Of a stretch of 44,436 nucleotides of DNA, positions 35,154-37,379 are shown in pieces; the first letter of the stretch is position 1, and every line of letters begins with the position of its first letter. The notes under the pieces are model-generated. The model had not been told where the DNA came from and made no database searches. It worked only from the letters and a program-made list of their open reading frames with translations. A program made the position numbers and the translations under genes. Source of the DNA: Gemmatimonadales bacterium (GTDB taxonomy: Bacteria; Gemmatimonadota; Gemmatimonadetes; Gemmatimonadales; JACORV01); NCBI GenBank assembly GCA_017881505.1, contig JADGQW010000002.1, positions 1-44,436 of the forward strand. The letters are read 5' to 3'.

Positions 35154-37379
35154 GTGGCAGAGCACACTTTTCCCGATGAGTGGCTGGTCGCGACCGTCTC
35201 GCTGATACTGGGCGGGGACGTGGTCGGGCGGCTGCGCCAGTCCGCGCAGCCGACCACGACGTTGTGGGACCTCGTCACGCAGGGCGGCCTCGCCACGGAG
35301 GAGCAGCTGCTGGCCGCGATGTCCGGCCGCTCCCGGGTCAAGCTCGCCGACCTCTCCAAGCCCGACCCCCGCGTCAAGGAAGTCATCCCCGAGGCGATCG
35401 CCCGGCGCTACCACGTCCTGCCGCTCCGCGTCACGGACTCGTACGTCGAGGTCGCGACGGCGAATCCGTACGACATGGACATGGAGAAGGGGATCGCCTT
35501 CGCGTCGGGCCGCGAGGTGCGGATGGCGCTCGCCGCGCCGGCGAAGATCGCGGCGCTGACCGACGAGGTGTACCGCCCCGAGAACGTGATCGACAAGCTC
35601 CTCGAGGGGATGCACTCGGCGACCGACGTCGAGCACATGGAGGACGAGAACCCGGCCGACGAGATCCAGGTCAGCGCGGAGGAGGCATCCCAGCGTCCCG
35701 TCGTGCGGCTGGTGGACCTGATCCTCTCCGAAGGCATCCTCTCCCGGGCGAGCGACATCCACATCGAGCCGGAAGAGGGCGGCTTCGCCGTCCGCTACCG
35801 CATCGACGGCGTGCTGCGGCAGGTGATGAAGGTGCCGCGCGCCGCCGGGTTCCCCCTCGTCTCGCGCATCAAGATCATCTCGAGCCTGGACATCGCCGAC
35901 CGGCTCCGGCCGCAGGACGGCCGCGCGCGGGTGGCGGTGAACGGCGTCCCCGTGGATCTGCGCGTGTCCACGCTGCCGGCGTCCCTGGGCGAGAAGGTCG
36001 TGATCCGCATCCTCGACTCGCGGGCCACGGTCCTCTCCCTCGACGCGCTGGGCCTGAACCAGGACGAGCTCGACGGCATCCGGAACCTGCTGACCCACCA
36101 CGAGGGCGTGGTCCTGGTGACGGGGCCGACGGGGAGCGGCAAGACCACCACCCTCTACTCGGCGCTCCGCGGCATCCAGACGGGGAAGACCAACATCGTC
36201 ACCGTCGAGGACCCGGTGGAGTACCGCCTCCAGGGGATCGTGCAGGTGCAGGTCCACGAGAAGGCGGGACTCACCTTCGCCAGCGCCCTCCGGTCCATCC
36301 TGCGGCAGGACCCCGACGTGGTGCTGGTCGGCGAGATCCGCGACAAGGAGACGGCGAACATCGCCATCCAGGCCTCCCTCACCGGGCACCTGGTCCTCTC
36401 GACGCTGCACACCAACGACGCCGCCAACGCCGTGACGCGCCTGGTGGACATCGGCATCGAGGCGTACAAGATCGCGGCGTCGCTCCGCGGCGTCGTGGCG
36501 CAGCGGCTGATGCGGAAGCTCTGCCCGCAGTGCAAGGAGGTGTGGGTCGAGTCCATCCCGGAGAAGCTCGCCCCCTGGTTGTCGAGCGGGACGCCGCTGT
36601 ACCGCGCCGTGGGCTGCACGGAGTGCGCGATGACGGGCTACCGCGGCCGCTTCTCGATCGTGGAGGTGCTGACGGTCACGCCGGAGGTCGAGCGGGCCAT
36701 CAGCTCGGGCGCGACGGCGGACAAGATCGCCGAGGCGGGGCGGAACGCGGGGATGCGGGGCCTCTGGGAGAGCGGGGTCGCGCACATCCTGCGCGGCGAG
36801 TCGTCCATCGAGGAGCTGATGCGGGTCGTGGACGTCCCCTTCGACGAGGAGGCGGCCGGCGCGGCGACTGCCGCCGCGGCTGCTGCCGCCGCGGAGGCGA
36901 CTGCGGCCGCCGCGGCGCCCGAGCGCGCGCCCCGCTCGCCCATGGACACCTTCGAACTGCTCGACAACCTCGACGGCAAGCCGAACGTCGCGCGGCTCAA
37001 CCGCAAGGTGCTGCTCGTAGATGACGAGGACGCGCTCCGCCGCGTGATGAAGGACCTGCTGGAGCGCGAGGGCTACATCGTCTCGGAGGCGCGGGACGGC
37101 GTCCAGGCCCTCGACCAGGTGGACAAGGTCGGCCCCGACGTCATCGTGCTCGACCTCAACCTGCCGGGGCTCGACGGCTACGGCGTCCTCTCCCACCTCC
37201 GCTCGCGCCCCGCGACCGCCAACATCCCCGTGGTGGTGCTGACCGCCAAGAGCGATGAGGACAACGAGGTGCGTGTCTTCCAGCTCGGCGCCGACGACTT
37301 CCTGACCAAGCCGTTCCGCGCCCGTGCCCTCTCGGCGCGGCTCGACGCAGTCCTGGGGCGCCGCCACTTCCCTGAGTGA
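35154..37379 (+). CDS. GspE/PilB-family secretion/pilus ATPase fused to a C-terminal response-regulator receiver domain
   Basis: The parts are as follows:
- T2SSE_N-like N-domain.
- Walker A GPTGSGKTT at about 36123-36146.
- Walker B VLVGEIRD.
- His box LSTLHTND.
- Cysteine pairs CPQC...CTEC.
- Ala-rich linker at about 36852-36917.
- Receiver domain at about 37005-37358, with LLVDDED, VLDLNLPGLDG, VLTAKS and TKPF. Confidence 0.9.
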   Translation: MAEHTFPDEWLVATVSLILGGDVVGRLRQSAQPTTTLWDLVTQGGLATEEQLLAAMSGRSRVKLADLSKPDPRVKEVIPEAIARRYHVLPLRVTDSYVEVATANPYDMDMEKGIAFASGREVRMALAAPAKIAALTDEVYRPENVIDKLLEGMHSATDVEHMEDENPADEIQVSAEEASQRPVVRLVDLILSEGILSRASDIHIEPEEGGFAVRYRIDGVLRQVMKVPRAAGFPLVSRIKIISSLDIADRLRPQDGRARVAVNGVPVDLRVSTLPASLGEKVVIRILDSRATVLSLDALGLNQDELDGIRNLLTHHEGVVLVTGPTGSGKTTTLYSALRGIQTGKTNIVTVEDPVEYRLQGIVQVQVHEKAGLTFASALRSILRQDPDVVLVGEIRDKETANIAIQASLTGHLVLSTLHTNDAANAVTRLVDIGIEAYKIAASLRGVVAQRLMRKLCPQCKEVWVESIPEKLAPWLSSGTPLYRAVGCTECAMTGYRGRFSIVEVLTVTPEVERAISSGATADKIAEAGRNAGMRGLWESGVAHILRGESSIEELMRVVDVPFDEEAAGAATAAAAAAAAEATAAAAAPERAPRSPMDTFELLDNLDGKPNVARLNRKVLLVDDEDALRRVMKDLLEREGYIVSEARDGVQALDQVDKVGPDVIVLDLNLPGLDGYGVLSHLRSRPATANIPVVVLTAKSDEDNEVRVFQLGADDFLTKPFRARALSARLDAVLGRRHFPE

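Follow-up and report, generated by a model that had tools for sequence, protein, structure and literature searches.

A PilB/GspE-type ATPase with a C-terminal receiver domain in Gemmatimonadales and its relatives in type IV filament operons

What is the role of a PilB/GspE-type motor ATPase that carries a CheY-like receiver domain (REC) in its own polypeptide and lies apart from the genes of a filament or secretion machine? The question is raised by a gene in a 44,436-nucleotide stretch of a Gemmatimonadales genome (contig JADGQW010000002.1, positions 1 to 44,436 of the forward strand; the whole stretch is hereafter the window), the product of which we call ATPase-REC. The same architecture heads type IV filament operons elsewhere, and the window protein is therefore best read as the assembly ATPase of that machine; we consider it probable that the gene specifies a PilB-like assembly ATPase which serves a type IV filament system with genes at another place in the genome, and which is controlled directly by a two-component signal through its tethered receiver. 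The gene is a variant of the PilB/GspE motor within a large uncharacterised subfamily, not a new kind of system. The switching of pilus and secretion motors is an active question, and the known controls comprise cyclic di-GMP (c-di-GMP) at the N-terminus, PilZ/FimX adaptors, phage inhibitors and response regulators acting in trans, for which contact with PilB is often unproven.

Anatomy and distribution of the ATPase-REC fusion

The gene and the parts of its product, with residue numbers of the protein, are the following (AF2, AlphaFold2; pLDDT, predicted local distance difference test).

35154..37379 (+), ATPase-REC gene (MshEN/N1, PilB/GspE ATPase core, linker, REC), GTG start, 741 amino acids
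35178..35333 (+), N-terminal four-helix bundle, MshEN_N-like, residues 9-60 (AF2)
35355..35582 (+), MshEN_C / T2SSE_N1 domain, residues 68-143 (PF05157)
35682..36824 (+), T2SSE ATPase core, N2 and C-terminal domain (CTD), residues 177-557 (PF00437)
36123-36149 (+), Walker A GPTGSGKTT, residues 324-332 (motif search)
36321-36344 (+), Walker B VLVGEIRD, residues 390-397 (motif search)
36396-36419 (+), His box LSTLHTND, residues 415-422 (motif search)
36522-36626 (+), tetracysteine, CPQC residues 457-460 and CTEC residues 488-491 (motif search)
36846..36992 (+), disordered Ala/Pro-rich tether, residues 565-613 (AF2 pLDDT < 50)
36852-36917 (+), Ala-rich segment of the linker, residues 567-588 (sequence)
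37008..37343 (+), REC domain, residues 619-730 (PF00072; (beta-alpha)5 fold, pLDDT ~90)
Residues 620-626 (+), LLVDDED with the acidic pair D623/D624 (motif search)
Residues 665-675 (+), VLDLNLPGLDG with the acceptor D667 at nucleotides 37152-37154 (motif search)
Residues 695-700 (+), VLTAKS with T697 (motif search)
Residues 718-721 (+), TKPF with K719 (motif search)

The initial annotation had described a single 741-codon open reading frame (ORF) of three parts; the ORF at 35154-37379 (+) is as it was described, and the Walker A and B, His box, tetracysteine, linker and receiver motifs each lie at the position quoted there. Long ORFs occur in every frame of the GC-rich window (69-75% GC), so that ORF length alone is no evidence of a gene; the ATPase-REC frame has a GC content of 0.72/0.45/0.96 at the first, second and third codon positions, which is a coding signature. 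An antisense ORF of 923 amino acids that spans the whole gene (34623..37394, -) has the wrong codon-position GC pattern and was rejected as a high-GC artefact.

Pfam, NCBIfam, a PDB sequence search and AF2 were applied to the 741-residue protein. All three expected Pfam domains were matched, namely MshEN PF05157 (56.7 bits, residues 68-143), T2SSE PF00437 (450 bits, residues 177-557, covering profile positions 2-370 of 370) and Response_reg PF00072 (112 bits, residues 619-730). The full-length core with Walker A, Asp box, Walker B and His box places ATPase-REC in the PilB/GspE (PF00437) superfamily, and its CTD holds the Zn-binding CxxC...CxxC of assembly-type ATPases; the catalytic motifs and C457, C460, C488 and C491 are invariant in an alignment of 53 diverse family members. 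In NCBIfam the top model was GspE TIGR02533 (561.2 bits against a cut-off of 630.25), followed by PilB TIGR02538 (531.8 bits against 675.65), and the protein, being under both cut-offs, is assignable to neither equivalog. The AF2 model, built on a 53-sequence alignment, has an N-terminal four-helix bundle (helices 9-19, 21-30, 37-43 and 49-60, pLDDT 85-92), the ATPase domains N1, N2 and CTD, the disordered tether and a (beta-alpha)5 receiver (residues 618-736), the placement of these domains relative to one another being unreliable (predicted template modelling score, pTM, 0.50).

The canonical phospho-acceptor residues claimed for the receiver, D623/D624, D667, T697 and K719, are all present, and the acceptor Asp is aligned in the orthologues. 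In 15 Gemmatimonadota orthologues these five residues are invariant and REC residues 618-737 as a whole nearly so, and the linker varies freely in length and sequence in the same alignment. Across 198 family members the acceptor Asp is kept in 189, the T/S in 194 and the K in 191, and the family receivers therefore appear to be ordinary receivers, not pseudo-receivers, and are presumably phosphorylatable. A motif F-E-L-L-D (residues 600-604, nucleotides 36951-36965) stands at the end of the linker directly before REC; the 15 orthologues all have F600, L602 and L603, and almost all have E601 and D604. Since the wider family does not share the motif, it may be a docking peptide peculiar to this lineage.

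The fusion is widespread. All of the 120 best database homologues (74-100% identity), drawn from JGI, ENA, NCBI and Logan assemblies and, where named, from Gemmatimonadales or Gemmatimonadetes metagenome-assembled genomes (MAGs), carry the same three domains. A scan of one genome per species gave 221 relatives; the best 80 of these are all from Gemmatimonadota (60-83% identity), and nearly all of the 80 match residues ~1-738, a few ending at a contig edge. Altogether, the uninterrupted fusion is found in more than 100 independent assemblies with linkers of differing length and sequence, and also in other phyla. In a search of 1.84 billion cluster representatives at 50% identity, the best 150 matches, with identities to the window protein down to ~35%, were domain-mapped by phmmer: 110 have the ATPase followed by a C-terminal receiver, one has the ATPase followed by three receivers, three (P0246, P0252 and P0263, which are proteins distinct from the window type) have an N-terminal receiver, and in 36 a receiver was undetected. 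Among the named members are a Zixibacteria MAG, a MAG given as 'Deltaproteobacteria' and Calditrichota, one record of which bears the label Caldithrix abyssi. ATPases with a C-terminal REC are thus a large and widespread family in Gemmatimonadota, Calditrichota, Zixibacteria and other uncultured lineages; the form which the initial annotation took to be exceptional is common (110/150), and no characterised family was found for it. As a separate observation, the proteins P0128, P0130, P0132, P0135 and P0400-P0421, one of them named Candidatus Moranbacteria, have ~1000 amino acids and two tandem T2SSE cores per polypeptide.

Filament operons of relatives and a proposed mode of control

Six members that are not of the Gemmatimonadales type were looked up, and five of them (L085, which is the locus labelled Caldithrix abyssi, L086, L087, L088 and L090) follow one operon pattern. 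In each of the five, ATPase-REC is the first gene of a single co-directional type IV filament cluster, in which it is followed by a Peptidase_A24 prepilin peptidase, a T2SSF platform protein, two to three N_methyl pilins, a long PilM-like protein, PilO-like proteins and a secretin, and which is closed in four of the five loci by a PilT-like ATPase of ~340 amino acids. L088 has a REC-PAS-histidine kinase directly after the secretin, and one of the five loci gave a weak T2SSC match. Since ATPase-REC is the sole PilB-type ATPase of these clusters, it is, as judged from gene content, the predicted assembly motor of a retractile system resembling the type IVa pilus.

The lack of machine genes around the window gene is to be seen against this pattern. 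GspF/PilC, pilin, secretin and prepilin peptidase genes are absent among the Pfam-scanned ORFs of the window, in which a few stretches are unassigned to genes. The initial annotation was right in reporting no partners nearby, but this is a trait of the lineage: because relatives head complete type IV filament operons, the missing partners reflect a gene arrangement specific to Gemmatimonadota. In this phylum the ATPase gene is separated from the machinery genes, and this uncoupling is genuine. According to a survey of the whole phylum (PMC10581226), Gemmatimonadota genomes from every habitat but the marine one contain type IV pilus genes.

The input that acts on related motors at their N-terminus is probably lost here. 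The c-di-GMP-binding MshEN domain is defined by a tandem 24-residue motif RLGxxL(L/V/I)xxG(L/V/I)(L/V/I)xxxxLxxxLxxQ with a 5-residue spacer (PMC5013675), and the best tandem placement in the window protein agrees at 8 of the 22 defining positions, whereas the same script finds 19/22 in the REC-bearing relative P0425; the operon-type members tested gave 7-10/22. Control by c-di-GMP through MshEN was rejected on the ground of this degenerate motif, and the receiver would be the obvious replacement input.

In the proposed mechanism, a histidine kinase, for which the product of the adjacent hybrid kinase gene is one candidate, would phosphorylate D667. The six tethered receivers of the hexamer would then shift their contacts, either by REC-REC dimerisation or by binding to, or detaching from, the ATPase ring or some part of the machine, and this change would switch the activity of the hexamer or its recruitment to the PilM/PilC platform. 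Filament extension would in this way be under direct phospho-control, replacing the c-di-GMP input of MshE-type ATPases. The receiver-in-motor family offers a one-polypeptide system for probing the effect of phosphorylation on a PilB hexamer, and it flags a regulatory logic that is likely general for pili in Gemmatimonadota, Calditrichota and Zixibacteria.

The Gemmatimonadota neighbourhood and alternative readings

The genes adjoining ATPase-REC in the window are the following.

31221..32846 (-), FHA-GAF-adenylate/guanylate cyclase, divergent from the Omp85-like gene, start at 32846 (Pfam)
33010..35079 (+), predicted Omp85-like (DUF5686-like) gene, 689 amino acids, with a signal peptide, a beta-rich N-domain and a C-terminal barrel (AF2 and Foldseek)
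37324..37851 (+), NUDIX hydrolase with a canonical Nudix box (PF00293)
37858..39909 (-), hybrid histidine kinase GAF-PAS-HisKA-HATPase-REC, without Hpt (Pfam)

They belong to a conserved stretch that begins with GlmS, Dtd, Maf, one or more heptosyltransferases, Kdo kinase, the FHA-GAF-cyclase and sometimes a chorismate-binding enzyme, and continues with a protein of ~690 amino acids, ATPase-REC, sometimes IGPD, NUDIX, the hybrid kinase, a protein of ~200 amino acids, EngB, ClpX, ClpP and Tig; the GlmS-to-Tig region is syntenic across the order. The 689-residue protein upstream of ATPase-REC gave no match in Pfam at E up to 10, in NCBIfam or in a PDB sequence search. Some of its homologues carry PF18939 (DUF5686), and in its AF2 model (mean pLDDT 70) the barrel aligns in Foldseek to BamA, TamA, Sam50 and Toc75 (E ~1e-8), by which modelled fold we assign it as a putative Omp85-like outer-membrane protein. 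Among 69 Gemmatimonadota loci that are informative, at least 60 have its gene directly upstream of ATPase-REC and in the same orientation, and in the window the two are separated by a 74-nucleotide gap with no terminator-like site, so they probably form one operon. A scan of 32700-38000 found no promoter-like sites and one terminator-like site at chance level. Downstream, the NUDIX gene shares 56 nucleotides with the end of the ATPase gene if it starts at GTG 37324, which homology favours. A NUDIX gene often comes after the ATPase gene in Gemmatimonadota, and one follows it in L089 and L092. The product of the window NUDIX gene has its highest, though weak, score against NudB, an enzyme of the folate pathway.

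Of 54 informative Gemmatimonadota loci, 25 have the hybrid kinase gene no more than 1.5 kb away and a further 12 have it at 1.5-8 kb, while in 17 it was not found in the available downstream flank; the kinase is thus a candidate phosphodonor that is not consistently linked. The FHA-GAF-cyclase is a conserved neighbour, encoded upstream of the ATPase gene at a distance of up to 7 kb in 56 of the 58 loci that are informative. The window also encodes a response regulator with an HD/HD_5 (HD-GYP-like) output (23053-24123, +), and this regulator, the cyclase and the hybrid kinase make the stretch rich in signalling genes. Between the hybrid kinase gene and EngB there is an ORF of 198 amino acids (39918-40514, -), which occurs in many Gemmatimonadota loci and has no family match.

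Relatives of the window protein differ in what follows the ATPase. P0137 and P0170, with 49-52% identity to the ATPase part of the window protein, end in a NUDIX domain instead of REC, and these NUDIX domains are 48% and 37% identical, respectively, end to end to the window NUDIX; the fusion of NUDIX to the ATPase in sister lineages hints, in Rosetta-stone fashion, at a functional link. The C-terminal domain is PAS-GGDEF in P0204, from a Gemmatimonadota MAG, and GAF in P0219 and P0270, and to judge from these sequences signalling domains have evidently been fused repeatedly to the C-terminus in the window ATPase clade. Gemmatimonadales have, in addition, a second REC-fused PilB/GspE paralogue, found beside aroA-cmk in L091 (3317-6990) and L094 (4482-6174). 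In L091 it is followed by a single-domain receiver, one unassigned gene and a pilin-like N_methyl gene; the copy in L094 is cut by the contig end and belongs to the same assembly (DATMBH01) as L017, which holds an orthologue of the window gene. A rough neighbour-joining tree without support values gave a clade A (the window gene, L089, L092 and the NUDIX fusions), a clade B (L091 and L094) and an operon-encoded clade.

Several of these observations weigh against an assembly motor under phospho-control. In 84 Gemmatimonadota loci, the 10 kb on either side of the orthologue contain no gene of the type IV filament machine; ATPase-REC scores under the equivalog cut-offs of both GspE and PilB; the AF2 model gives the position of REC relative to the ATPase ring without confidence; the Gemmatimonadota clade stands apart from the operon-encoded clade in the tree described above, and orthology of function is assumed; and the replacement of REC by NUDIX, PAS-GGDEF or GAF in close relatives accords with a signalling role no less than with a motor.

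The main alternative is that the Gemmatimonadota paralogue has left the pilus machine and been repurposed in a three-gene module with the Omp85-like barrel and the NUDIX hydrolase, one possibility being a phospho-regulated signalling or envelope-biogenesis ATPase for a process that is not a type IV filament. It is suggested by the lack of filament partners in the 84 loci, by the constancy of the Omp85-like gene directly upstream and by the adjoining or overlapping NUDIX gene and the NUDIX fusions. An Omp85-like gene is still near the fusion gene (2374-4632) of L093, a distant lineage of 49% GC, together with genes for a chorismate-binding enzyme, Kdo kinase, heptosyltransferase, Maf and Dtd. 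The second REC-fused paralogue, one copy of which lies near a pilin-like gene, could be the true pilus motor, and Myxococcus xanthus PilB, which signals to exopolysaccharide production as well, is a loose precedent; the title of one paper (PMC5544727) describes PilB as a signalling protein. However, given the synteny from GlmS to Tig across the order, the adjacency may be inherited gene order and not functional linkage; the weakly NudB-like NUDIX and the gene for a chorismate-binding enzyme nearby in relatives give the neighbours a housekeeping look; the operon-type loci of other phyla lack the Omp85-like gene; and ATPase-REC keeps all catalytic motifs and the Zn tetracysteine of machine-bound PilB/GspE. 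We regard repurposing as unlikely, and the window protein as the probable motor of a filament system. With its orphan gene tied to Omp85-like and NUDIX genes and its second REC-fused paralogue, Gemmatimonadota offers a tractable case of motor duplication and possible repurposing.

That the motor would serve a type II secretion system in place of a retractile pilus, with REC gating protein secretion, is a reading to which we give little credence. The NCBIfam score is slightly higher for GspE than for PilB (561 versus 532 bits), the tetracysteine Zn site is common to EpsE/GspE, and the T2SSC match in one operon-type locus points the same way; but four of the five family operons end in a PilT-like retraction ATPase and carry PilM/PilO-type alignment proteins, as is characteristic of type IV pili, the protein reaches neither equivalog cut-off, and the best solved-structure matches are to PilB. 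No more favoured is the idea that REC is not an allosteric gate but a phosphate sink, for example one competing with the REC of the hybrid kinase, or a module for localisation or docking, such as polar targeting, that leaves ATPase activity unaffected. The disordered tether of ~50 residues and variable length would keep REC detached from the ring, the kinase encoded next to the ATPase gene is of the hybrid type and has no Hpt, and response regulators influence PilB localisation in other bacteria (PMC11656802). On the other side, few parts of the protein are as conserved in Gemmatimonadota as REC, and the fusion is kept across phyla, which suggests a specific functional coupling. Finally, an erroneous joining of separate ATPase and response regulator genes by a frameshift or mis-join in the low-complexity GC-rich linker, a typical site of sequencing errors and a doubt already raised in the initial annotation, can be dismissed as scarcely credible, because the same single ORF, with differing linker lengths, is kept in the more than 100 independent JGI/ENA/NCBI/Logan assemblies and in other phyla.

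Comparison with known systems

The architecture can be seen in domain databases, and part of it had been catalogued earlier. Wang et al. 2016 (PMC5013675) include a REC-MshEN-T2SSE form (Gmet_3473, Supplementary Table 4) in beta-, gamma- and delta-proteobacteria as well as an MshEN-T2SSE-cNMP-binding form, and the C-terminal REC form is not listed there; JGI annotation labels the latter 'GspE/PilB-like protein/CheY-like'. Literature searches found no characterised receiver-fused PilB/GspE in either orientation, and the words 'receiver' and 'fused' are absent from a 2024 review of PilB regulation (PMC11656802). The earlier claim that this ATPase family has no member controlled by a covalently attached receiver thus holds for characterised examples, but not for the fusion itself, which PMC5013675 and JGI had already recorded.

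Of the solved structures, PilB (Geobacter metallireducens 5TSG/6OLJ; Myxococcus xanthus 3JC8) shares the MshEN-like region, N1, N2, CTD and all motifs with the window protein; PilB 5TSG/6OLJ is the best match (~400 bits, residues 29-559), and family members in other phyla hold the pilB position of pilus operons. Unlike PilB, the window protein has an extra C-terminal REC on a disordered tether and a degenerate MshEN motif, and pilC, pilD and pilin genes are not adjacent. GspE/EpsE (Vibrio EpsE 1P9R/4KSS/4PHT) has the same ATPase core and Zn CxxC...CxxC, and differs in that the window protein carries REC and has no GspL, GspF or GspD gene nearby, a PilT-like ATPase being encoded in 4/5 family operons. 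A receiver is present in none of the solved PilB and GspE/EpsE relatives.

NtrC/DctD-type activators of the REC-AAA+ class, in which a REC on the same polypeptide governs how a ring ATPase assembles or works, belong to an unrelated ATPase family and have REC at the N-terminus, and are useful as an analogy only. In the uncharacterised Gmet_3473 type, REC is likewise fused to a PilB/GspE-type ATPase, but it is N-terminal, ahead of MshEN, whereas in the window protein it occupies residues 619-730, after the ATPase. MshE-type motors (Vibrio cholerae MshE and Pseudomonas aeruginosa PA14_29490) also have their input domain inside the motor polypeptide, and their N-terminal four-helix bundle is kept here; unlike them, the window protein retains 8/22 positions of the c-di-GMP motif, and its likely input is phosphorylation at the opposite end of the protein. 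A two-component or chemosensory phospho-signal reaches the extension motor likewise in systems with response regulators described as acting on PilB in trans, namely P. aeruginosa PilG/PilH, the Synechocystis PATAN-REC regulators (bioRxiv 10.1101/2021.06.11.447907) and Xanthomonas DrdR (PMC13507683). These regulators are separate proteins, whereas the receiver of the window protein is part of the motor itself, a 'Rosetta-stone' version of the same arrangement.

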